Source of the DNA: a virus
IMG/VR virus record: IMGVR_UViG_3300009537_000043
Coordinates: 1-42,981 of that record
Length of the DNA: 42,981 nucleotides
Strand: one strand, 5' to 3'
How positions within the stretch are numbered: the first letter of the stretch is position 1; each line of letters begins with the position of its first letter. Of this stretch, positions 2,039 to 42,981 are shown piece after piece. Made by a program: the position numbers and the translations under genes. Below the pieces are notes generated by a model that worked only from the letters and a program-made list of their open reading frames with translations, made no database searches and was not told the DNA's origin.

Positions 2039-2412
2039 ATGTTAATTACGAAGAACTAATACGTAAGTTCCATGACAAGTTCCAACAGACCTACAAAGGT
2101 CCACCGAGAGTCTTGCCAGAAGAACTACAATGGAGACTCGACTTTATTTATGAGGAATTTACAGAGCTTGAAGAAGCTGTTGACCATGAAGATATTGTTA
2201 AGACCTACGATGCTCTTCTAGACCTGATGGTCGTCTGCATGGGGACAATTGACCTAATGGGACTCTCTATCAATAAGGGATTGTTCGAGGTTATGCGTTC
2301 CAATATGACCAAGGAACTCGGACCTATTGGAACAGGGAAATATGGTCGTGGTCTCCAAAAGGGAAAAGATTATCAACCACCAAACTTGGAGGTATTATGT
2401 CAGGTAGATTAA
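2035..2412 (+). CDS. MazG-like all-alpha nucleoside triphosphate pyrophosphohydrolase
   Basis: 125 aa with acidic helix motifs (EEFTELEEAVDHED ... DALLDL) typical of the MazG/HisE fold. AGGAG lies upstream, with ATGA coupling to the previous gene. Confidence 0.65.
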   Translation: MNVNYEELIRKFHDKFQQTYKGPPRVLPEELQWRLDFIYEEFTELEEAVDHEDIVKTYDALLDLMVVCMGTIDLMGLSINKGLFEVMRSNMTKELGPIGTGKYGRGLQKGKDYQPPNLEVLCQVD

Positions 2413-2963
2413 TCATTGTCGAAGGTCCAGATGAATGCGGAAAGTCAACTCTTGTTAAGGTGTTGACAAAAACTCTTCATCTAGTTCCATTTCATTGCAC
2501 AGCTAGTCGAGCCTTATTCCCTGCTCTACCTGACTACCATAAGAACATCATGTTTAATGTGAAGGAAATGTTGAAAGAAGGACATGATGTAATTCTAGAC
2601 AGGTATTGGCCTAGTGAAGTATGTTATGGGCCTATCATGGGACGAGGAAATCATTACTGGACTACCGCATTGGAGCTTATTAAGGAAATTAAGAAGCTAA
2701 ATCACGTGTATATCTTTTGTAATTCTGAATATGCGTGGTCTAGATATGAACAAGGACACACAGACCCTGCACACTCATTAACAAAAGAACAATACGAACA
2801 AATCGCAAATAACTACTTACAACTAAAATATGAACTCAAAGAATACATCGAATACAACGTCGAAACCCATGGAACAAGAGACAATATTACCGAATTTATT
2901 TCATCCATCGAGAACTTTTTTAAACTTAGACATCAATCAAATATGGTTGAAAGTGTTGGCTGA
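2397..2963 (+). CDS. Thymidylate-kinase-like dNMP kinase
   Basis: P-loop IIVEGPDECGKSTL resembles the Tmk signature (EGxDGxGKST). 188 aa. GGAGG lies 5 nt upstream of the ATG. Confidence 0.7.
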   Translation: MSGRLIIVEGPDECGKSTLVKVLTKTLHLVPFHCTASRALFPALPDYHKNIMFNVKEMLKEGHDVILDRYWPSEVCYGPIMGRGNHYWTTALELIKEIKKLNHVYIFCNSEYAWSRYEQGHTDPAHSLTKEQYEQIANNYLQLKYELKEYIEYNVETHGTRDNITEFISSIENFFKLRHQSNMVESVG

Positions 2964-3723
2964 TATCATTAACTATGGAAACAGTGTCAATCCACGTGGT
3001 CAGGAGACTTTCGAGATTCTGAACTACACTACACGTGTTCCCATGAATCGTGCAGCATTGTCCGTAGTGAACAGAGAGCTTGGATACAAGTTTCTGTTTG
3101 CAGAGGCTTGGTGGATTCTCATGGGTGACAACCGTGTTTCAACTATCGAGCCTTACTCAGGACAAATTGCCTCATTCTCTGACAATGGAATCACCTTTGA
3201 TGGAGCATATGGACCTGAAGTAATTAGTCAATTAGACCACATAGTGGACACACTCCACAAGTCTCCTGACTCTCGACAGGGTGTAATGACTATATGGAAA
3301 AAGAATCCTCGTAAGAGTAAGGATATTCCTTGCACTATCTCTGACCAGTTTCTGATTCGTGACAACAAGCTTCATGTTATCCACAATATGAGAAGCTCAG
3401 ACATCTGGCTTGGTTGGCCCTATGATGTATTTAACTTTTCCATGATTTCACTCTATATTGTGAAGGCATTGAATAAGTGGATGCCAACCCTGGACCTTGG
3501 TGACTTGTATCTTAATGCCGGCAGTCAACATCTGTATCGTAAAAACATTGCAGGAGCGCAACGATGCTTGACTGCTCCTCATTCCTGGGATTATAAACCA
3601 CTTAACGTGAATGAGTTCAGAGATAGTAATGATGTCTTGGCTTACTTGGATTCCATGAAAGACAAGAATATCAAAGCAACAACAGTGAGCTATTTGAAAG
3701 ACTTAGTCAAATCAGCAGGATAA
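2830..3723 (+). CDS. Thymidylate-synthase-superfamily enzyme, probably a dCMP 5-hydroxymethylase or 5-methylase rather than canonical ThyA. The start is uncertain (2830, 2869 or later)
   Basis: ThyA-family motifs AEAWWILMGDN, SPDSRQG, catalytic DIPCT, NMRSSD and GSQHLY. The core FLIRDNKLHVIHNMRSSDIWLGWPYD resembles recalled T4 gp42. The 5' 134 nt overlap the kinase gene. Confidence 0.8.
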   Translation: MNSKNTSNTTSKPMEQETILPNLFHPSRTFLNLDINQIWLKVLADIINYGNSVNPRGQETFEILNYTTRVPMNRAALSVVNRELGYKFLFAEAWWILMGDNRVSTIEPYSGQIASFSDNGITFDGAYGPEVISQLDHIVDTLHKSPDSRQGVMTIWKKNPRKSKDIPCTISDQFLIRDNKLHVIHNMRSSDIWLGWPYDVFNFSMISLYIVKALNKWMPTLDLGDLYLNAGSQHLYRKNIAGAQRCLTAPHSWDYKPLNVNEFRDSNDVLAYLDSMKDKNIKATTVSYLKDLVKSAG

Positions 3724-16204: not shown

Positions 16205-18817
16205 TTAATTCTTTCCACTTGGTGACAACCAATAGTCTTGGTTATATTCTTGTTTTCGTTTATGTTCCATCTCTCTGAGACCTCCTGGTTCTAGCATCTC
16301 AGAGATGTTAAACCAAATAAGATGGTCTAACGCAGGTTTAATATAGAATAAATTAGCAAAAGGAATATTGTCTTTAGCAAATCTGAAGGCATCATTAGCC
16401 TTAGCTTCACCACGGATTCCTTGAGAAGCTAGAGCAACAAGTTTAGTTGCTTCACTTAAAGCAGGTCCACCCATCTTGGCTACGATACTATTATACCCTG
16501 TATCATATTCCTTGAGGAGTAAGTCACCAAGCAATGTTGCTGCATTGCCACGAAGAAATGAATCTTGTATAATTTTAAGACTCGCGTCTGTGTCAATTTC
16601 TCCTCTGCTGTCAGTAAAGCTTCGAGGTTCTTTTCCTGTCAAAGCTTCATCAATCGTTAATGACAGATAGCCTGCAATAGTAGAAAGCGCGATTAACTGA
16701 GTAGTATGGAAGTTTGTATTCTTCTCATTAATCATCCAGTCCTTAAATGTTCTAGCTCCAGAACCATACATCTCTCTACGAAGAATCTTGGTCCATACAG
16801 CAACAGGAAAGGTCTTGAACATCATGAGCAGACGAACCAGAGAACCTGGAACTGTTCCTGCCTGTGTTCCAAAGGTGGCTAGACGATGTTCCTTACTTCC
16901 AGGAACGAGAACACTCTCGTCACGTTGAGCCGTGAGCCATGTGCGATACTTCTCTTCAAGAAGATTGTATCTTCTTTGTCTGTTGTTATTTGTTGTTTGT
17001 AATCCATCAGCCTCTAACATTGCATCAATAGTTTCGATAGGAATGCTTTTGAACTGGTCTGGTGTAATCCAGACTTCGCCATTCTTATGGATACCTTGTT
17101 TAACGTTTCCATCTGGGTCAACTGTGTAGGCTGTTGACCTCCAGGCATCCCATTCAGTTGGAGAGATACCATACATGGTCATCATTCTTTTGAAATCTGG
17201 AATCAAATTGTCAAAAGACTTATCTGCTAATGCACCTGCATGTCGAGATAAAGCTCCAATTACTGAGTCAGTTCCAATGTCATCGAGCTTATTGATACCT
17301 GTCAAATTGAAGAAGTGTCTCTGCATGTTAAGGACACCTGAGTGAATTCCAGCTTCAGCTCCTGCTGAGAATCTACTATGAACAGAACCCAGGAAGGATT
17401 TAAGTTCACCACCTAACATGGTTAGACGCAAACGTTCTTCTGGAGAAGATGGTCTTTTAATTGCTAAGGCTGCTGCTAGAGCATCGAGACCTCGAAGACC
17501 ATTACGTGTTAAAGTGGATTGCATTAACGCACGGTCAGGTAGAGCGAACAGCAGAAGCTTACCAAGCTTTGCTTGCGATAGCAGGGAGATAGTCGTAGCC
17601 GTAACTGTAGCCATCGTAGGGTTCTCTGGAATGGAAGCACTACGGTCTAGAAAACTTAGAGCAGAAAATAGACGATGCTTGTTGTGTTGAAGACTTCTAA
17701 CCTTAGCTTCATCACCCTGACGAGAATATTCATACTCCAGGTTCTTGATAACCTCTTCCAATGTTCCTCTTGGATTAGGTCCAAGTTGTTGCATCAATCC
17801 AATATTGGTAGCTGCATGTTCAATCTCAATTACAAAACCTTTGGAGATTGGTTCATCTGACAAGGCTTGATAAACAGCGAAAGCTGACTCACCATCTTTG
17901 AAATGAATGAGTCGTTGCTGTGAAGCTTTCTTGGCTAATGCACCTGCCTTGAAGTATGAAACATTAATTTCAGCACCTGAAGCTTGTTGAACAGGACCAT
18001 GTTTACCGTCCATGATACCATAGAAAGCTCCTCTCAAAAATTCCATTGGGTCTGAATCTTTGAAAGTCTTTTCATGGTCAACATGTTTCAACATGAACTG
18101 CGCCCACTGTTGGAATGTTGCCTCAGATTCTTCAGTCGTCAAGAATCTTTTCAAGTTAAGTGGATTCTTAAACCGTTCAGGTCCAAACATCTTCTTAATT
18201 AAAGATGGGCTATAGGTCTGACGTTTAACGTGTTCAGGAAGAAAGTGGATATATGAGCCATAAAGATTTTGAAGTCGGACCATGTCCTGCTTTAATGCAG
18301 TCATGATGTCACGAATAGCTTTTGCTTTAGGATTACCTGAGCTTCCAGGTTCATAGAACTCCATGAAGATTTCTTTAGCAAAGTGGTTCTTGTTGAAAGC
18401 TTCAAGCAAACCAGACTCAACTAACCTCGCTTTCAATTCTCCAATATACTTACTCTTGTAACCTTCAACAATGGAATTGATACCACGTCCAGCAGCTTCA
18501 GAAAACTTTCTTGAATCTTCTAAGAAAGCAAGGATTCCTTCAAATGGTGAAGCATAAGACTTGGCCCATTTGGTTAAGTTGCGAACAGACTGAATTGTAA
18601 AAAGAGCGTTTCGTTTATTAATGAGTTTAATTTCATCAATATCAGTTGCCAGTTCTTCCCCTGCTTGAGAAATCTTTTCTTCAATAGAATCAAGACCAGA
18701 CTTGTTCCTAGCTTTCTGCTCAATAGCATCAACGAACTCTTGAGCCTCACCTTCTGACATTGAGTCATCGGCGTTCTCGAGAATACTGACCTTACATTCT
18801 TTAAGGTTTGCTTTCAA
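16205..18817 (-). CDS. Large internal virion (ejection) protein
   Basis: 870 aa. It is the third of three very large consecutive coupled ORFs between the tail and fibre genes, positionally analogous to the T7 gp14-16 block. No catalytic motif recognised. Confidence 0.55.
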   Translation of the reverse strand: MKANLKECKVSILENADDSMSEGEAQEFVDAIEQKARNKSGLDSIEEKISQAGEELATDIDEIKLINKRNALFTIQSVRNLTKWAKSYASPFEGILAFLEDSRKFSEAAGRGINSIVEGYKSKYIGELKARLVESGLLEAFNKNHFAKEIFMEFYEPGSSGNPKAKAIRDIMTALKQDMVRLQNLYGSYIHFLPEHVKRQTYSPSLIKKMFGPERFKNPLNLKRFLTTEESEATFQQWAQFMLKHVDHEKTFKDSDPMEFLRGAFYGIMDGKHGPVQQASGAEINVSYFKAGALAKKASQQRLIHFKDGESAFAVYQALSDEPISKGFVIEIEHAATNIGLMQQLGPNPRGTLEEVIKNLEYEYSRQGDEAKVRSLQHNKHRLFSALSFLDRSASIPENPTMATVTATTISLLSQAKLGKLLLFALPDRALMQSTLTRNGLRGLDALAAALAIKRPSSPEERLRLTMLGGELKSFLGSVHSRFSAGAEAGIHSGVLNMQRHFFNLTGINKLDDIGTDSVIGALSRHAGALADKSFDNLIPDFKRMMTMYGISPTEWDAWRSTAYTVDPDGNVKQGIHKNGEVWITPDQFKSIPIETIDAMLEADGLQTTNNNRQRRYNLLEEKYRTWLTAQRDESVLVPGSKEHRLATFGTQAGTVPGSLVRLLMMFKTFPVAVWTKILRREMYGSGARTFKDWMINEKNTNFHTTQLIALSTIAGYLSLTIDEALTGKEPRSFTDSRGEIDTDASLKIIQDSFLRGNAATLLGDLLLKEYDTGYNSIVAKMGGPALSEATKLVALASQGIRGEAKANDAFRFAKDNIPFANLFYIKPALDHLIWFNISEMLEPGGLREMEHKRKQEYNQDYWLSPSGKN

Positions 18818-21777
18818 ACAATTTTCCTTGTGATACAGTTAATACCAGCTTCAAGACCTTTTTTCATTTTGTCCATGTTCTTTGCTTCAACGTTCTCTGT
18901 TGCAATCTTATGAGCATCTTCAATTTGAGATTTGATTTTCTCAAATAATTGCTTACCTTTCTGGCTTGCAGTTGACCATACTCGTTTGAATGCGTCTGGA
19001 TTCGGTTGTGCTGCATTAACTGCGCCTCTATCAATAAGACGTAAGTTACCATCTTTGTCAAGACCAAAATTACCTGAATGTGGGTCATCTACAAAGAATC
19101 CCATATCATATCCAGCAAGACTTAGTGCTTCTGAAACATGTTCAGGTAAAGCATCATTCTTTCCTAATACTTGAACACGGTCTGTTACTTCAATCTTTAA
19201 ATCTTTAAAGTCTTTCATTAACTCTTGGGTTAATGTGAATCCTTTCAAATCAAAATCTTGATTTGTAATAGAAATCTTGATTGCTTTTTCTTTAGTCAAG
19301 AATACAATTGATTCTGCACCAACTTTAACTTCAACAGAAGGTTCTGTTATGTCATAACCTTTTTCCTGTAAAAGTTTAGTTACTTTTTTGATTTGTTCAT
19401 TTGTAATTACTTTATGAGGTAGATGTGAAACATCTACATCTTCAGGGTCAAGGTCGTCTATATGACCATCGAACTTCTGGTCGTTTTCTTCAACAATTGC
19501 TCTTTCAATATCCCATCCTGCTCTATCAACTTTAGTCTTTAGCTCATTAAACTTCCCTTCATCAAACTTAATTGAAGTTTTCTTTTCAGCCTTAACTTTC
19601 TTTTCAGCCTTAACTTTCTGTTCAGGTTGAGCTTTCTTCACCTTCTTCATTTCCTTCGTCACAAGCTTCAAGGCAGCTTCTTGTGCGACCTCTGGGTCAA
19701 TTTTTTCCCTCATTCTTGATTCAACAGTCTCAAGAGTTGAGCCAACATCTACATAAATTGTGTATGGATTTTTAGGGTCAAGTTTTGTATAAACCTCTTT
19801 AGGAGACCCAGGAATCATCTCTTGGATTCCATCAAAGCGTAAACCAAGTTCTTTGGCAATCTTTTTTCCACCTTTAGTCAAAAGCCTAGCAGTCTTTGCG
19901 CCCAGGAATCCAACACCTGCAGCCACCTGCTCAGGGTCAAGACCCATGTTCGTATGTTTCCGACCTTCCTTGAGCTTCTGTTCTGACCACTTTTCAATGA
20001 CATCAACTACTTCATCAAATGTTCCCTTCTCTTCAGGAGTAAGGTCCATGTCCTGCTCCCAGGAATCAACTTCTTCTTTAATCCTAGCAAGTTCCTGCTT
20101 ACGTTCCTTGTCTGTAAGATTGTTCTTGACAGGCTCAGGAGTCTTGGGAATATCAGTTACAGGTTCAGCAACCTTGGGTTTAGGTTCATTCTTCTTAGCT
20201 GCAATTTCTTTTACCTTCTTGACCGTTGCTTCACGGACCTGGGCTGGTGTGACTGTGGGAGCAGATTCAGAAGGTTTAGGATAATAAACAAAATCAAAAT
20301 TACCTTCAGGTACAAACCCTAGATTCTTATAAAATTTTTCTAATCTTGGTTGCTCTTCTCTAGACAACGCTTCTGGAATCAAAGATAATTTCTTATTTAG
20401 AGAATTAGAAAGTTGCTTAAGTTTATTAAGCATTTCTGTTCCAGTTCCTTTACCTTGCTCTGTAACCTCAATATTGAGAAGAGTGATACCTGATTCCTCA
20501 ATCTGAACAGAAAGACCAATGAACCTTGAGTCATTAGTTGTATAGTAACCTTTCTTACCAAGAGAACCTTTCTGTGGAACAAGACCAATTGACTCAGGCG
20601 TCGTTGCTCCTGGCTGAGAGCCTCGGTCAGCATCAACTAAATCTTGAACTTCTTTAGGAAGAGTTTTGTAAGTCTCAGGGTCAACATGCCGAAAGATTTC
20701 CGGCATGGCTGAAGCAGCCTCATCTAAACGAAGATTAAACAATGCTGCCATGTTATGAATGGTAGCTGAAGTAGGATTGCGAAGCATAGCTCCAAGAAGC
20801 TTTCTACGCACATCCATTTCAGGAGTCAATCTCCCTTGAAAAGCAAGTTGCTCCAACCTATTCAAATGTTCTTCAGCAATGGAAAGAATATTTCTACCAT
20901 TAGCTGCTTGCAATTCTTGCGTTACAACAGTGTTATCAACAGAGATAACATCTGATGGAGAAGTCACTGGACGGTCTTCAACAATATCGGCAACAGCTGC
21001 CATGTGAGCAGCCTCATGAGTCTGAGCATCAATCTGAGATAGAGATACCCTGGCTGCCTTAATTCTATCTGAAATATGACCACCAACAGCAGGGATACCA
21101 GCACCTAGGATTGTTGAAAACAACAAATTCATTGCTGATTCAACAGGACCATAATGTGCTTGTTCATCGTAAGCAGCAAGAAGGTTAAATGGCTCAACTA
21201 ATCCAGCACCAACAAAACCAGAGACAGCTCCCTTTGCCGCGCGATATGCAAAACGATTGTTCCCAGTAAACCCTACAACAGTTTTTGGAGAAATGAGACC
21301 TTTTGCAAAGTAGGAAGAAGCTCTGGCTGTTCCTGTTAAGAGACGTTCTTCACCTACAATAGGAATGAACATTGAAGCCAGGTTGACAGGGTCTAGTGCT
21401 TGAGATACCAGAGAAACACCAAAACCTGTAATCCCTCGACTCCAATGTTTTTCAGACCTTGACTGAATTTCGAATTCCCTACGATGTTCAGCCAATTTCC
21501 TATCATGTAATAGTTGAGCATAAGATTCATAAACAGGGGAGTCAAACTTCAATTCACCATTCAAACCATAAGTCTCACTAGCCTCTTCAGGAGAAATCAT
21601 TCTACCTTCTCCAAACTTTCTTTCAATGAAGGACTCTGATAGGCGATGGACAGCAGACACAGGACTATGATAAAGATTGTCATAGACTAAGCTTGCTGCA
21701 TAATCCACAAACCCTGAATCTGCTCTGTCAGCAGATTCGAAAGATGTATCTCTTGGTGCTGGTCGTATTGCTGGCAT
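18814..21777 (-). CDS. Large internal virion protein with an embedded GNAT acetyltransferase domain and a possible C-terminal kinase-like domain
   Basis: GNAT motif A LNIEVTEQGKGTGTEML...FYKNLGF. C-terminal VGAESIVFL..KAIKIS ... DDPHSGNFGLDKDGNLRLIDRG. ATG 21777 overlaps the upstream stop (TAATG); the ORF track start is 21816. Confidence 0.65.
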   Translation of the reverse strand: MPAIRPAPRDTSFESADRADSGFVDYAASLVYDNLYHSPVSAVHRLSESFIERKFGEGRMISPEEASETYGLNGELKFDSPVYESYAQLLHDRKLAEHRREFEIQSRSEKHWSRGITGFGVSLVSQALDPVNLASMFIPIVGEERLLTGTARASSYFAKGLISPKTVVGFTGNNRFAYRAAKGAVSGFVGAGLVEPFNLLAAYDEQAHYGPVESAMNLLFSTILGAGIPAVGGHISDRIKAARVSLSQIDAQTHEAAHMAAVADIVEDRPVTSPSDVISVDNTVVTQELQAANGRNILSIAEEHLNRLEQLAFQGRLTPEMDVRRKLLGAMLRNPTSATIHNMAALFNLRLDEAASAMPEIFRHVDPETYKTLPKEVQDLVDADRGSQPGATTPESIGLVPQKGSLGKKGYYTTNDSRFIGLSVQIEESGITLLNIEVTEQGKGTGTEMLNKLKQLSNSLNKKLSLIPEALSREEQPRLEKFYKNLGFVPEGNFDFVYYPKPSESAPTVTPAQVREATVKKVKEIAAKKNEPKPKVAEPVTDIPKTPEPVKNNLTDKERKQELARIKEEVDSWEQDMDLTPEEKGTFDEVVDVIEKWSEQKLKEGRKHTNMGLDPEQVAAGVGFLGAKTARLLTKGGKKIAKELGLRFDGIQEMIPGSPKEVYTKLDPKNPYTIYVDVGSTLETVESRMREKIDPEVAQEAALKLVTKEMKKVKKAQPEQKVKAEKKVKAEKKTSIKFDEGKFNELKTKVDRAGWDIERAIVEENDQKFDGHIDDLDPEDVDVSHLPHKVITNEQIKKVTKLLQEKGYDITEPSVEVKVGAESIVFLTKEKAIKISITNQDFDLKGFTLTQELMKDFKDLKIEVTDRVQVLGKNDALPEHVSEALSLAGYDMGFFVDDPHSGNFGLDKDGNLRLIDRGAVNAAQPNPDAFKRVWSTASQKGKQLFEKIKSQIEDAHKIATENVEAKNMDKMKKGLEAGINCITRKIV

Positions 21778-24056
21778 TATCCTGATGATAGTAAAGCGTT
21801 GGCTAATCTGTCCCAAATTGAATCTGTTGTTTTATTTTGGTATCTATGTTTAACACCCCTACCTGCTTCTGGAATTGGAACTAAAGTTTCTGAGAACATA
21901 ACCTTGACAGGAGTTCCATCTTTATAGAACACTTGTTTAGAAGTTCCAAGAATAGAACCTTTAGTATAAAGATACACACCCTGTTCATCTTCCGTGGTTG
22001 CCCAGAAAGTGTTGTAGTTCAATGAATTTTCAATATCTTTCTTAATTTCTTCAGGTTTAAAACCTGTCTCATTTAAGATAGACTCAGGTTCAATTTGGTC
22101 AGCATCAAGTCGTCTAGGAAAGACCCTCAAGAAGTTTGAACTTGCTGTTTGTTGGTCAGGAGACATCCTATGTTCTTTACCTAAACTGTCCTTATATGTC
22201 AAAGGACGAGCATAAGAGACTCCATTTAATTCACCCCAGGAGTAGTTACCAAAGAACATGGAAGAAGCATCTTCAATCTTGCCTCCATTAAGAACATAAT
22301 CTCTAGTGAAGTCTCTAAATGTTTTTCGAACTCCATCAACAATTTTGTGAGTTTCAGAACTGTTGTTGGATGCAACCATGGAACTCTCATAAGCCAACAG
22401 ATTGTTATCCAATCTCACATCAGTCAGAAAATTGTTCTTAACTTTATCACTTTCAAATTTCTGATAAACTTCTTGAGGGTCTTTTCGAATAGCATCTACA
22501 ATCAATCTGAATGTAGATGGATTATTCAAATGCCACATCAAAGGATTAAGACTGCTTGAAACCTCTTCTCCACCTTTAATCTGTTGAAGTTGAGACAATG
22601 CGATAGTGATGTGGTCTTTATATTCATCATTAAAGTTAACCAACATTTCTCGAACACCAGCACCATCAGTCTTATTCCCAACTTCAACAAGTTTGTTAAA
22701 AGATGTAATAAACTTTTCAGCTTCTCCTTTTGGCATCACACGATACTCATAAGGTCTCATGGTAGTGTCTGCTTTCTGAAGAGAAAGCACAGCTTCTTGT
22801 AGTTCCTTACGATTCTCAGGAGTAGGGTCTTCACTTAACTTTTGTGCATAAGACCTAACAGAAGGATGTTGAGAGAAATAAGTAAAAGCATCTTCTTTCC
22901 TGTCATCATTTGCCATCGAGATGATTTTCTGAGCAGCCATGTATAGAGCTTGCTGTTCACCATATAAAGGTGAGCTTTCATCTTCTTTAGGTTTATGATT
23001 CTCAAGAATGAAATTAAGCTCTTCCTGGGAAGCTCCTTTAGACATTTCAACAACTTCATGAAGTTGTGTTGCCATGTTGAGTTCTCTTTCAGCAGATTCA
23101 CGAGCAGCTTTACCATAAGCAGCTTCATACTCATTTAAATCAAGACTTTCACCTTGACCTGTCTGCATTCTTTGAATCTTATCAGATTCAAGAGCTTCTT
23201 TCAAGAGAAGCTTATTTTGGTTGTCCTTGGCTCTAATAGATTCCTCTGATTTCGCGGCAAGCAAGGCTCTTGTCCTAGCAGGAACACCGTCCATAATACC
23301 TTTGAAATCTCCTTCTCCAAGAGCAACAGATTTCACAAGTTCAGGGTTGTCTGACAACATGGATTCAGCCCAGGCAACAGGAAGCAAGTTAACCTTCTCC
23401 TTCAAATTTTGAATAATTATTGGGTCTTGAATCTGACCATTAGTTTTAGCATCTTCAATAGTTCCATGAAGAAGGTCTCGTTGAACTGCAAGCTCTCCAA
23501 GAGATTTTGTGTTGAAGATAGATGATTCTGCGTTAACCATCATCTCGTCAAATGAAGCTCCAAACTGAGCTAATTGCTGACGGCTCTGAAGTTTAAAAGA
23601 CTCATTTACCAATCCAATACGATAGTCAGCAGACAGGAGTGACAGATTCTCTCTAACCTTTGTTGAATCTGTTCCATTCAGCATCTTGGTAACATAATCA
23701 TCATATTCAGCGGTAGCTGTTTCCATCAGATTGTCTGTTGGGTTCTTAGACAATTCGATTAGACGATTATTCCAATCAGTCCTTAGCTGAGAGTATTTCT
23801 TTTTCTCTTCAAGGTCTTCAATTTGACGTGTTTTCCTCTCAACCAAATCAGCAATAATATTTTGTTGATGAAGTTTGATACTCCTCATCCTGTCTTCATG
23901 TTGCTCTCTGCTCTGGCCAATATTGGAAATATTTGCTGCAGCACGTGAAATACCAGCACCCAGGAGAGATGTGCCACGACCCTTTCCAGAATCAGAAGCA
24001 CCTGCTCCTGATTGAGCTTGAGGTATTAAACTTTGTGAATATGTGGGAATTTCCAT
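21777..24056 (-). CDS. Large internal virion protein
   Basis: 759 aa, helical and charged composition, in the internal-protein block. No motif recognised. Confidence 0.55.
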   Translation of the reverse strand: MEIPTYSQSLIPQAQSGAGASDSGKGRGTSLLGAGISRAAANISNIGQSREQHEDRMRSIKLHQQNIIADLVERKTRQIEDLEEKKKYSQLRTDWNNRLIELSKNPTDNLMETATAEYDDYVTKMLNGTDSTKVRENLSLLSADYRIGLVNESFKLQSRQQLAQFGASFDEMMVNAESSIFNTKSLGELAVQRDLLHGTIEDAKTNGQIQDPIIIQNLKEKVNLLPVAWAESMLSDNPELVKSVALGEGDFKGIMDGVPARTRALLAAKSEESIRAKDNQNKLLLKEALESDKIQRMQTGQGESLDLNEYEAAYGKAARESAERELNMATQLHEVVEMSKGASQEELNFILENHKPKEDESSPLYGEQQALYMAAQKIISMANDDRKEDAFTYFSQHPSVRSYAQKLSEDPTPENRKELQEAVLSLQKADTTMRPYEYRVMPKGEAEKFITSFNKLVEVGNKTDGAGVREMLVNFNDEYKDHITIALSQLQQIKGGEEVSSSLNPLMWHLNNPSTFRLIVDAIRKDPQEVYQKFESDKVKNNFLTDVRLDNNLLAYESSMVASNNSSETHKIVDGVRKTFRDFTRDYVLNGGKIEDASSMFFGNYSWGELNGVSYARPLTYKDSLGKEHRMSPDQQTASSNFLRVFPRRLDADQIEPESILNETGFKPEEIKKDIENSLNYNTFWATTEDEQGVYLYTKGSILGTSKQVFYKDGTPVKVMFSETLVPIPEAGRGVKHRYQNKTTDSIWDRLANALLSSG

Positions 24057-24571
24057 TATGCTATCTTTGGTTGAGCAGAAGCTTTTTGTTTGGCTTGACT
24101 GTAATCATTCGCGTATCCAGCGCTTTCAGTAACTCCAGATAGAATTGTAGAAGATATTCCATAATATGAATTACTTCTAGCTTGATTTCCTTCAAACCTG
24201 GCTAACGAAGCTTGAGCCATTGAACTATCTGCTCCAGTCTTCCCTTGATACAAAGAAGTCAATACATCGTTCTCAGCAGCTAAAGCCGAGTCATACATAA
24301 CATCATTTGCTGAACCTGAAAGAGTAATACCTGATTTAGAGGCACTTGAAATCTGTGCTCCTTTAAGTCTTTTTGCTCTATCACGTATCCTGGAAGCTTG
24401 AGCCTCAGCTTGATACCGTTGTGAGATGGCTGCATTCTCAGCAATTTTAGCATTGTAATTGGCTACTTTCTCCTGTGCCTTTCCTTGCTGATACATACCA
24501 ACAGCAGAGACAGCTGTTCCTACAACTGCTACTACTGCTGCTACTATTGCTGCTGCTGTTGCTACTGCCAT
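24056..24571 (-). CDS. Small internal virion protein with an N-terminal TM helix
   Basis: MAVATAAAIVAAVVAVVGTAVSAVG hydrophobic N-terminus, then an Ala/Gln/Ser-rich region. It is the first of the internal-protein block. Confidence 0.5.
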   Translation of the reverse strand: MAVATAAAIVAAVVAVVGTAVSAVGMYQQGKAQEKVANYNAKIAENAAISQRYQAEAQASRIRDRAKRLKGAQISSASKSGITLSGSANDVMYDSALAAENDVLTSLYQGKTGADSSMAQASLARFEGNQARSNSYYGISSTILSGVTESAGYANDYSQAKQKASAQPKIA

Positions 24572-25086
24572 AATTCTTTAGAGTAAAAGATTTCTATTGG
24601 TTTAAAACCACGACGTTCATACAACTTTTTGAGAGTTTCGGAATTGTGTTCAACCAAATGAGCCATCATAATTCTATTAGCACCTATCTCAACAGCCCAT
24701 TTTTCAAATGTTAAGAGAAGTTCTAAACCTCCCCTACCAGTTCTATGTTCAGGATGAACATACCAAAAAGTCTCAGTAGCAGTTAAAGAACCATCAAGAA
24801 TATCTGGGGACAAAATACCACCAAGCATTCCAACTATCTGGTCATTCTTAACATACTTCCACATTACCCCCATGTTGTTTTCTAACAATACTGTCCAGTT
24901 CTTCAAAAACACATCTAAATTGAACTTGACAGGTAAACCGCACTCATTAAGAAATGAAAGAGCTAACGAGGTTACTCGCAATTCTTTCAATCCCTCTAGT
25001 GTTATCGGTTTTATCACGTTTTGTGTGTGGTCTAAAATTAGTTGAGCGGCGTTTTGATTGGCCCATTGGCCCAAACCATAGGGCAA
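24562..25086 (-). CDS. GNAT-family N-acetyltransferase. The track start is a TTG and the true start is uncertain
   Basis: The core HPEHRTGRGGLELLLTFEKWA...LYERRGF fits GNAT motif A (R-x-x-G-x-G) and beta-4/alpha-3. It lies inside the structural operon. Confidence 0.75.
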   Translation of the reverse strand: MPYGLGQWANQNAAQLILDHTQNVIKPITLEGLKELRVTSLALSFLNECGLPVKFNLDVFLKNWTVLLENNMGVMWKYVKNDQIVGMLGGILSPDILDGSLTATETFWYVHPEHRTGRGGLELLLTFEKWAVEIGANRIMMAHLVEHNSETLKKLYERRGFKPIEIFYSKELWQ

Positions 25087-42552: not shown

Positions 42553-42942
42553 ATGACAACACCAGCAGCAGCAAACTTCTATCTCGCACAACATCTACTC
42601 GAACAAGAGGGCAAACCTTATGCCGTCTTTAATCCTCATAATAAACATGTTGAAACATTACCTGTTATCTTCGGATTTAATAACGGTGGGTCTAATGGTT
42701 GGTATAGGGCGTGCTTACTTGCAGAAGATGGCACACATCTAGGTGGCCACATCTGTTCGCACGAAGGTTACATGCGACACGACCTTGGTATCCTTGAAGG
42801 AACTCGTCCAGACAGGCACGAAGATTTTAAGAAACACTATCCGAATGGGTATCGTATGGCGTTTGTCTCGTTACACGAAGTGATGAATTGCAAACCTTTA
42901 CTGAAGGCGTTTGAACTAAACAAACTGAAAGAACCGAAATGA
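42553..42942 (+). CDS. Hypothetical protein. Its 3' end lies in the terminal overlap
   Basis: 129-aa ORF. The last 60 nt are duplicated at 1-60. Confidence 0.5.
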   Translation: MTTPAAANFYLAQHLLEQEGKPYAVFNPHNKHVETLPVIFGFNNGGSNGWYRACLLAEDGTHLGGHICSHEGYMRHDLGILEGTRPDRHEDFKKHYPNGYRMAFVSLHEVMNCKPLLKAFELNKLKEPK

Positions 42943-42981
42943 ACTACGAATACGAATGCACCAACTGTGGAGAGGAGATAA
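42883..42981. repeat. Terminal overlap, copy 2. It indicates circular closure or a short direct terminal repeat
   Basis: Exact 99-nt identity with 1-99. ORF 57..323 restarts at 42939. Confidence 0.95.

Follow-up and report, generated by a model that had tools for sequence, protein, structure and literature searches.

A Podovirus Internal Virion Protein Homologue with a Minimal GNAT Domain and a Kinase-like Module as Predicted Cargo

Introduction

The T7-type internal virion protein (IVP) operon is ancestral, and IVPs "variably host ... domains destined for the cytoplasm" (Hardies et al. 2016, PMC4819975). The passenger domains described there are N4 gp50 vRNAP, the methylase of Pseudomonas phage H66 gp60, and the lysozyme domains of T7 gp16 and phiKMV. 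IVP-A (T7 gp13) has an acetyltransferase fold and is a non-structural assembly protein (PMC4819975). The same block of genes is found in the DNA analyzed here, which comprises positions 1 to 42,981 of IMG/VR virus record IMGVR_UViG_3300009537_000043 (42,981 nucleotides; the window). The subject of this work is one gene of that block, which encodes a 987-amino acid (aa) protein, the target, with a truncated GNAT acetyltransferase domain and a kinase-like module.

We lean, by a modest degree, toward reading the target as an internal virion (ejection) protein of a ~43-kb, marine-type podovirus with two cargo enzymes that are ejected to modify host targets. The computational support consists of the open reading frame, two folds, conserved catalytic motifs, the operon position, and a cargo that is modular, shuffled, and present in a minority of relatives. 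The target resembles the IVPs of Hardies et al. in where its gene lies in the operon, after those for tail tube B, IVP-A, and IVP-B. It is likewise a large protein, and its additional enzymatic cargo could work only in the cytoplasm and varies between related phages. It differs from them in having two enzymes in one IVP, in the nature of this cargo (GNAT and kinase-like, neither reported in PMC4819975), and in the insertion of the cargo between the N-terminal domain and a C-terminal Cys motif rather than at an end.

A second class for comparison is that of the polyvalent proteins of phages and conjugative elements, among whose domains are RimI-like GNATs and kinases without a C-lobe (Iyer, Burroughs, Anand, de Souza, Aravind 2017, PMC5512222). 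Like these, the target combines several enzymes in one polypeptide that is expected to accompany the invading DNA, with modules that have been shuffled and accreted. Its kinase lacks the whole C-terminal subdomain and keeps the active-site residues, and its GNAT is RimI-like. The polyvalent concept is thus represented here by a GNAT and a kinase in one IVP-anchored polypeptide that would be delivered into the host. The anchor is a podovirus IVP N-terminal domain and not MuF or a similar domain as in polyvalent proteins, which include those with Kinase-PolyVal (PF18762).

Two kinds of free phage enzyme are also relevant. AcrVA5 is a free, early-expressed protein of ~92 aa, and T7 gp0.7-type and other phage Ser/Thr kinases are early-gene products that act on host proteins at the start of infection. 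The target shares a phage-encoded kinase fold with the latter, and such kinases are among its structural neighbors in BFVD. It differs from the T7 gp0.7-type kinases, which have a fuller domain, in lacking alphaC and the C-lobe and in being pre-made and presumably virion-borne. AcrVA5 inactivates Cas12a by acetylation (bioRxiv 10.1101/2021.11.16.468554; PMC10799925).

Enzymatic passengers on IVPs and polyvalent proteins delivered with DNA have already been described computationally (PMC4819975, PMC5512222). In the literature we found no experiment in which a podovirus ejection protein delivers a kinase.

Results and Discussion

Gene and Domain Organization of the Target

The architecture of the family was derived by BLASTP and alignment with ten database relatives (P0001-P0010). 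The gene and its parts are listed below.

18814 to 21777, minus strand: whole target gene, 987 aa and stop, internal virion protein homologue with two passenger enzyme domains
20653 to 21777, minus strand: constant N-terminal domain, aa 1-375, common to all relatives (phrog_3003 E 4e-25, phrog_342 E 1e-6)
20257 to 20595, minus strand: mini-GNAT acetyltransferase domain, aa 395-507 (Pfam, AlphaFold2, Foldseek, and hhalign)
20440 to 20460, minus strand: E-Q-G-K-G-T-G, aa 440-446, the Q/R-x-x-G-x-G/A acetyl-CoA pyrophosphate-binding motif
19573 to 20256, minus strand: linker or helical region very rich in charged residues (39%), aa 508-735, including a module common to P0002-P0004
19579 to 19637, minus strand: 18-bp tandem repeat (~3 copies), translated as repeated KVKAEK, at the junction on the upstream side of the kinase module
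18898 to 19572, minus strand: kinase-like module, aa 736-960, with N-terminal helices, a five-stranded N-lobe without alphaC, a catalytic segment, and two helices at the end where a C-lobe would be
19276 to 19278, minus strand: Lys834, the beta3 ATP-anchoring lysine (AIKIS), K or R in 26/28 relatives
19024 to 19086, minus strand: catalytic loop and metal-binding loop, aa 898-918, D898-x4-N903 ... D916-R-G
18817 to 18870, minus strand: constant C-terminal tail, aa 970-987 (...GLEAGINCITRKIV); its Cys is kept in almost every relative

A preliminary description made from the letters of the window had proposed an open reading frame of ~990 aa without stating its strand. The frame is 987 aa long and lies on the minus strand, with an ATG at 21777 and a TGA at 18816-18814. 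A reading of 18814-21777 on the plus strand was ruled out by its many stops and the lack of an open frame. All of the peptide strings quoted in that description were located in the minus-strand translation: RFIGLSVQ from aa 418, EQGKGTG at 440-446, VGAES at 819-823, KAIKIS at 831-836, VDDPHSGNFG at 896-905, and LIDRGA at 914-919. The start codon shares bases with the preceding gene's stop (TAATG), and AGGA lies 5 nt before it; at the other end, the stop shares bases with the TTG that starts the following gene. These overlapping junctions indicate that the target gene is translationally coupled within a tightly packed operon.

No match to the target gene was obtained by megablast against 50,697 phage genomes. 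A phmmer search of the PDB with the whole protein gave noise only, and no relative of the whole protein was found in IMG/VR.

The Kinase-like Module

An AlphaFold2 model of the kinase module was obtained from a 28-sequence alignment with a pLDDT of 94.1 and a pTM of 0.87. The elements of the model appear in the order beta1-beta3, beta4-beta5 with no alphaC in between, one helix, the catalytic and DxG strands, and two helices. Beyond DxG only the helices at aa 927-936 and 939-972 are present; the model contains neither a C-lobe (alphaF-alphaI) nor an activation segment with APE. Comparison of the model with the PDB using Foldseek returned kinase-fold proteins only among the top 50 matches listed. 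Kin28, the WbdD kinase, APH(2''), PDK1, RSK, and TkArkI are at the top with E values of 4e-5 to 1e-3, and ERK2 and CDK2 are also found. The best TM-score in the PDB (0.38/0.43) is that of the 216-aa archaeal RNA kinase TkArkI. Most of the top 50 matches in BFVD have a kinase fold as well, and the named ones are mostly protein kinases of phages and giant viruses; the remainder are unnamed or uncharacterized entries and nidovirus replicase polyproteins. The kinase-fold matches in both databases have a probability of 1.00 or close to it.

The residues expected of a kinase active site are conserved across the alignment. D898, N903, G910, and D916 are invariant (28/28), and G820 is found in 27/28 sequences. 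The catalytic spacings, D+5=N and N+13=D, are canonical, and the same spacings occur in PKA. The kinase-like segment had been called tentative in the preliminary description and is now the better supported of the two domains, with a high-confidence fold and a conserved Lys, D-x4-N, and DxG. The short spacing of about 65 aa between the Lys and the catalytic loop, which had been noted as a reason for caution, is also accounted for by the model. The distance from K834 to D898 is 64 aa because there is no alphaC between beta3 and beta4 and the hinge is minimal.

The relationship of the module to described kinase families was addressed with profile searches. The ABC1/UbiB family (PF03109) is the only Pfam family that reaches its cut-off, and it does so on the isolated module (24.7-25.4 bits against a cut-off of 22.9, E 9e-6 to 1.5e-5); on the whole protein the match has 22.0 bits and E 1e-4. 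ABC1 is matched by 15 of the 28 relatives at E up to 0.1. The match spans the catalytic loop and DxG, but it covers only profile positions 146-220 of 244, or one third, and the N-terminal ABC1-specific elements are unmatched. Membership in ABC1/UbiB was rejected on this partial match and on a score of 14.6 for TIGR01982 UbiB against a cut-off of 487.55. Membership in Pkinase (PF00069) was rejected since there is no C-lobe or APE and a weak match is seen in just 3/28 relatives.

A profile built from nine kinase-module sequences matched mostly eukaryotic protein kinases among PDB sequences at E ~0.1. The profile consensus dDlhagNlGldsdGklviiDeg aligns with the catalytic loop and DFG of AKT1 (RDLKxxN...DFG), and MKK7 and PLK4 are also matched. 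An exhaustive search of 1.84 billion representatives with this profile gave 52 proteins at E below 1e-3. The close relatives belong to the same IVP family. The distant ones are small (150-280 aa) or carry the module in multiple copies, with the G-loop, V-x-K, D-x4-N, and D-x-G motifs, and some of them weakly match Pkinase, APH, or Kinase-PolyVal.

Kinase-PolyVal was reported mainly from (pro)phages of Verrucomicrobia-Chlamydia and Bacteroidetes and not from podovirus IVPs (Iyer et al. 2017, PMC5512222). PF18762 gave no match to the target at E up to 1 and was not among the families matched by the 28 aligned relatives, and a weak match was obtained with P0027, a distant relative outside that alignment. 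Unlike Kinase-PolyVal, the target lacks the conserved Gln in the last N-lobe strand (beta5) and the His upstream of D898 with the His...Asp insert. Many members of the module do have the Glu that immediately precedes strand 2 (E822). Membership in Kinase-PolyVal was rejected because PF18762 is not matched and two diagnostic features are missing; as judged from sequence, the module appears to be a separate or sister family. It is a rare family of C-lobe-less kinases, the full length of which is covered by no Pfam model. In one distant relative, P0021 (682 aa), two kinase modules flank an ART-PolyVal ADP-ribosyltransferase domain (PF18760, 38.8 bits), and this arrangement links the kinase family to the world of polyvalent proteins.

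These matches bear on the nature of the phosphoryl acceptor. The substrate could be something other than protein, such as a nucleotide or signaling nucleotide, tRNA or other RNA, a small molecule, or a sugar, or the domain could catalyze another ATP-dependent reaction such as AMPylation. The best PDB TM-score belongs to an RNA kinase, the polysaccharide kinase WbdD and APH(2'') are among the top matches, the closest Pfam family (ABC1/UbiB) consists of atypical small-molecule-associated kinases, and the model has no activation segment or C-lobe platform for peptide binding. However, classical Ser/Thr kinases are also among the PDB and Pfam profile matches, the named BFVD neighbors are mostly annotated as protein kinases, and the analogous C-lobe-less kinases were placed closest to protein kinases by Iyer et al. 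(PMC5512222). A non-protein substrate or different ATP chemistry is viewed as unlikely, and a protein kinase-like activity is retained in the reading developed here.

The Mini-GNAT Module

The AlphaFold2 model of the GNAT module consists of four strands, a helix, a strand, a helix, and two strands, which matches the GNAT core beta4-alpha3-beta5-alpha4-beta6. No helices precede alpha3 in the model where the N-terminal arm (beta1-alpha1-alpha2) would be expected. The domain is ~100 aa, compared with ~160 aa in canonical GNATs. Essentially all of the Foldseek matches are GNATs. The best are the chains of AcrVA5 (6iuf; E 9e-5 and 1.7e-4, TMq 0.59-0.60, TMt 0.69-0.70), followed by GCN5, SSAT (spermidine acetyltransferase), YhhK, and RimI. 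With the prediction for the kinase module, both of the folds that the preliminary description had proposed to check by structure prediction and fold search were recovered.

Within the four GNAT-bearing relatives the E, G, K, G, and G of the acetyl-CoA motif are invariant, as is an FY..GF motif. The EQGKGTG loop aligns with RQGIGS of AcrVA5 and with the same loop of 8osp. Alignment of the GNAT profile with AcrVA5 residues 16-82 by hhalign gave a probability of 90.3%, a pairwise E of 1.5e-6, and 25% identity over 65 columns. Against the PDB, the profile matched the N-acetyltransferase 8osp at E 0.009, AcrVA5 (6iuf) at E 0.026, and GCN5 entries at ~0.5. TIGR01575 rimI was matched at E 0.005, and the score for Pfam Acetyltransf_7 (18.0) is below the cut-off of 27. 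Protein searches seeded with either the GNAT segment or its alignment returned no matches and also missed the known relatives P0001-P0003, and these searches are thus uninformative.

A GNAT signature in the middle of the protein had been recognized before, and it stands with the qualification that the domain is truncated, AcrVA5-like, and below the Pfam gathering score. The resemblance to AcrVA5 (PDB 6iuf) lies in size (~95-110 aa), topology, and the acetyl-CoA loop. The GNAT of the target differs in being inside a predicted virion protein, and its sequence similarity to AcrVA5 is no stronger than that to generic GNATs, as the E values for 8osp and 6iuf indicate. By its model, the domain would be a truncated GNAT in the size class of AcrVA5, either a specific relative of that protein or just another minimal GNAT.

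Constant Ends and a Variable Cargo Slot

The N-terminal domain of the target is 77% identical to that of P0001, 50-57% to those of P0002-P0009, and 39% to that of P0010. Genes annotated as "internal virion protein" in pelagiphages and Pseudomonas phages were matched by this domain in tblastn searches. Hydropathy analysis identified three moderately hydrophobic, Gly-rich segments at aa 119-142, 183-203, and 210-237.

At the other end, the tail pattern among relatives is ...G-I-N-C-x-x-x-K-x-x, and the same motif ends cargo-free relatives of 430-530 aa. The Cys is missing only from the three most distant IMG/VR loci. The motif, in the form A-I-x-[DE]-G-I-N-C-x-x-G-[KR], is kept from cargo-free pelagiphage proteins of 430 aa to cargo-bearing ones of 1156 aa, and it is also present in L001 (6944-8413), L002 (6920-8512), and L005-L047. 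It could serve as a packaging signal, a partner contact, or a disulfide or metal site.

The region between the N-terminal domain and the C-terminal tail is variable. Among the ten database relatives, P0001-P0007 and P0010 have the kinase-like module, and only P0001-P0003 have the GNAT. The order of the domains in P0002 and P0003 is kinase and then GNAT, the reverse of that in the target. A scan of IMG/VR with the N-terminal profile gave 45 loci, and ~35 of these encode a cargo-free protein of 400-506 aa with the same C-terminal motif. The kinase module was found in 4/45 loci (3 distinct proteins) and the GNAT in 0/45. The presence of the cargo in a minority of relatives and the shuffling of its order indicate that it is accessory, inserted in a slot between two constant parts and shuffled between lineages, and this distribution argues against a core role in ejection. 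The KVKAEK repeat at the edge of the kinase module may represent flexible linker sequence or a scar left by recombination when the cargo was inserted.

Other contents of the slot were also noted. P0001 has an extra insert of ~210 aa (aa 640-850), and P0004 has a region of ~550 aa (aa 600-1130). P0009 contains three repeats of a '...GF.T.KGR[YF]ISREEA' unit, and P0016 has an insert that starts with 'WFHGRAGAEVEF'. P0008 and P0002 have in common a small domain containing 'SEDAIKMWK.IG'. Pfam searches of the other cargo regions (P0004, P0008, P0009, P0015, P0016, L011, L045, and L048) gave nothing credible. These modules of the relatives without a Pfam match, including that of L011, are candidate effectors.

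The Internal Virion Protein Operon

The target gene is flanked by the following genes.

24562 to 25086, minus strand: stand-alone GNAT, 174 aa, at the IVP-A (T7 gp13) position between tail tube B and IVP-B (PF00583 40.5 bits, phrog_1249)
24056 to 24571, minus strand: IVP-B-like internal virion protein, 171 aa (phrog_418 E 1e-23)
21777 to 24056, minus strand: 759-aa protein at the IVP-C position, assigned by synteny
16205 to 18817, minus strand: 870-aa virion structural protein, IVP-D-like (phrog_684 E 8e-120; weak phrog_342 match in the C-terminal part)

The target gene thus lies between IVP-B and the tail fiber, downstream of tail tube B and IVP-A, which is the position of a T7-type IVP. The same gene order is found in Pelagibacter phage HTVC100P, Manatee Spring podovirus (MW202510), Pseudomonas phage Ab31, and the metagenomic contig with P0003. 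The HTVC100P homologue of the target is gp45, annotated "putative internal virion protein". The match of the target to phrog_342 ("internal virion protein with endolysin domain") is weak (E 1.3e-6, aa 115-437 against profile positions 311-429). The earlier placement of the protein in the podovirus block of internal and ejection proteins is upheld by this synteny, by the PHROG matches, and by homologues annotated as internal virion proteins.

The 759-aa neighbor matched nothing in PHROG, Pfam, or NCBIfam. A protein of identical length (759 aa) is encoded at the same position of the P0003 contig, and the syntenic gene of Ab31 is annotated "structural lysozyme". The counterpart of the stand-alone GNAT in HTVC100P is annotated "putative acetyltransferase". 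The operon therefore holds two unrelated GNATs, one stand-alone and one inside the target. No similarity beyond the FY..GF motif was detected between them by BLASTP, which indicates that the internal GNAT is not a recent duplicate of the stand-alone one.

The target might instead be part of the tail exterior, or a non-structural product of a structural operon. The IVP assignment draws on synteny, on weak PHROG similarity, and on database annotations that are themselves predictions, which leaves room for such a role. Against it, the position between IVP-B and a large IVP-D-like protein is kept in four independent phage lineages, and the amphipathic Gly-rich N-terminal segments would be typical of envelope-spanning ejection proteins. 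Moreover, the proposed IVP-B, IVP-C, and IVP-D of phiRIO-1, encoded at equivalent operon positions, were detected in virions by mass spectrometry (PMC4819975). A role outside the set of ejected internal proteins is highly improbable on this evidence.

The operon also bears on where the enzymes would act. They could work in the producing cell before packaging, on phage structural proteins or on host factors such as sensors of late proteins, with their presence in the virion being incidental. The target gene is in the late structural operon, its product would thus be in the cytoplasm prior to packaging, and this operon already has a stand-alone GNAT at the position of the non-structural IVP-A with its acetyltransferase fold. 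On the other hand, the cargo sits as a fusion between the two constant parts of a protein that has internal virion proteins as its relatives, a late job could be done just as well by an unfused enzyme, and fusions of cytoplasm-destined enzymes to IVPs for which delivery is the point have precedents such as N4 vRNAP (PMC4819975). We regard action in the producing cell as unlikely and continue with delivery by ejection.

Genome Setting

An exact 99-bp direct repeat (1-99 = 42883-42981) is present at the ends of the window and is most simply explained as overlapping ends in the assembly of a genome that is circular or terminally redundant. Taken as such an overlap, it gives a true length of ~42,882 bp, and the window is then a complete podovirus genome. 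The plus-strand arm encodes a ligase, thymidylate kinase, thymidylate synthase, dCMP deaminase, DNA polymerase, primase, and helicases. The order in the minus-strand arm is terminase, portal, scaffold/protease, major capsid protein, tail tube A, tail tube B, the stand-alone GNAT, the 171-aa IVP-B-like protein, the 759-aa protein, the target, the 870-aa virion structural protein, and the tail fiber. The window yielded no tRNA genes, and the larger open reading frames scanned in it did not include one for an RNA polymerase. The thymidylate kinase-like (2397-2963, plus strand) and thymidylate synthase-like (2830-3723, plus strand) frames as listed overlap by ~130 nt, and the true start of the latter probably lies further downstream.

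Proposed Mode of Action

From the features described above we infer that the target is packaged and ejected into the cytoplasm, that its domains are catalytically active on protein substrates, and that they serve anti-defense or host takeover. The constant N-terminal domain and C-terminal tail would supply the packaging, channel, or membrane function that is common to the relatives. Between them would be carried a mini-GNAT of ~100 aa that uses acetyl-CoA and a second cargo with a core of ~160 aa, a protein-kinase-like phosphotransferase that uses ATP and in which the catalytic Lys, Asp, Asn, and Asp are kept. A few copies of the target would be packaged in the capsid core and ejected via the tail ahead of or with the DNA. 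The N-terminal part would engage the envelope, and the enzyme domains would refold on the cytoplasmic side. There they would covalently modify host targets, probably proteins, before any phage gene is expressed, and in this way may blunt defense or redirect the host machinery. Acetyl-CoA and ATP are confined to the cytoplasm. This restriction of the cofactors and the late synthesis of the target make action after ejection the most likely mode, and periplasmic action of the enzyme domains was rejected for the same location of acetyl-CoA and ATP.

Several observations weigh against this reading. The profile of the N-terminal domain finds no solved homologue in the PDB, where only designed coiled coils appear at E ~0.1, and only synteny and a weak PHROG match would point to orthology of the target with T7 gp15 or gp16. 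In the kinase model there is no helix between beta3 (aa 831-836) and beta4 (851-857), hence alphaC and its Glu are missing, and the glycine loop has a single conserved Gly (G820, in G-x-E-S) and no GxGxxG. Given these features of the model, the kinase-like domain could be a pseudokinase or another ATP-dependent catalyst. In the Foldseek comparisons the kinase reaches only low TM-scores (about 0.3-0.4), a consequence of long extra helices in the query and of C-lobes in the matched structures, and its neighbors by structure comprise not only protein kinases but also kinases of sugars, aminoglycosides, and tRNA. For the GNAT, the AlphaFold2 model has a pLDDT of 71.6, a moderate confidence, and was built from a 4-sequence alignment. 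The score for Pfam Acetyltransf_10 (22.4 bits, E 1.3e-4) is a near miss of the gathering cut-off of 23.6, which is consistent with truncation of the domain.

The same observations are relevant to the proposal that one or both domains are catalytically dead remnants that function as structural spacers or binding modules (pseudo-enzymes) in the ejection apparatus. Both domains are heavily truncated relative to canonical members, the GNAT is under its Pfam threshold, and the kinase is without alphaC, its Glu, and the GxGxxG loop. Against loss of activity, D898, N903, and D916 (28/28) and K/R834 (26/28) are kept at an overall identity of 15-30%, and conservation of exactly the catalytic residues at this level of divergence argues against dead domains. 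E-x-G-K-G-x-G and FY..GF are likewise invariant in the GNATs, and acetyltransferase activity is known for AcrVA5, which is equally small (bioRxiv 10.1101/2021.11.16.468554; PMC10799925). We consider dead domains very unlikely, and the favored reading remains that of two enzymes carried by an ejection protein.

A more specific version of delivery would have the mini-GNAT as a true AcrVA5-type anti-defense acetyltransferase, preloaded in the capsid, injected with the genome, and accompanied by a minimal kinase that would disable another host system. We consider this version decidedly unlikely. If true, the target would be a virion-delivered, enzymatic, multi-target anti-defense "warhead" that acts before phage transcription, and the expression lag that makes phages with ordinary anti-CRISPRs cooperate would be removed. 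The extreme truncation of both domains would then be an adaptation to unfolding and refolding in the tail channel, as may be compared with the minimal kinases of type III secretion effectors.

Conclusions

The combination of a GNAT and a kinase inside a podovirus IVP of the pelagiphage/Ab31-type operon is new, as are the cargo slot bounded by constant N- and C-terminal elements, the rare kinase family, and the AcrVA5-like character of the GNAT. The cargo slot in the relatives could be mined for new anti-defense enzymes and is perhaps exploitable for the delivery of engineered cargo. Enzymes need few copies per virion, which would make an internal protein an efficient vehicle. If the domains are active and delivered, host proteins would be acetylated and phosphorylated at time zero of infection, independent of gene expression.

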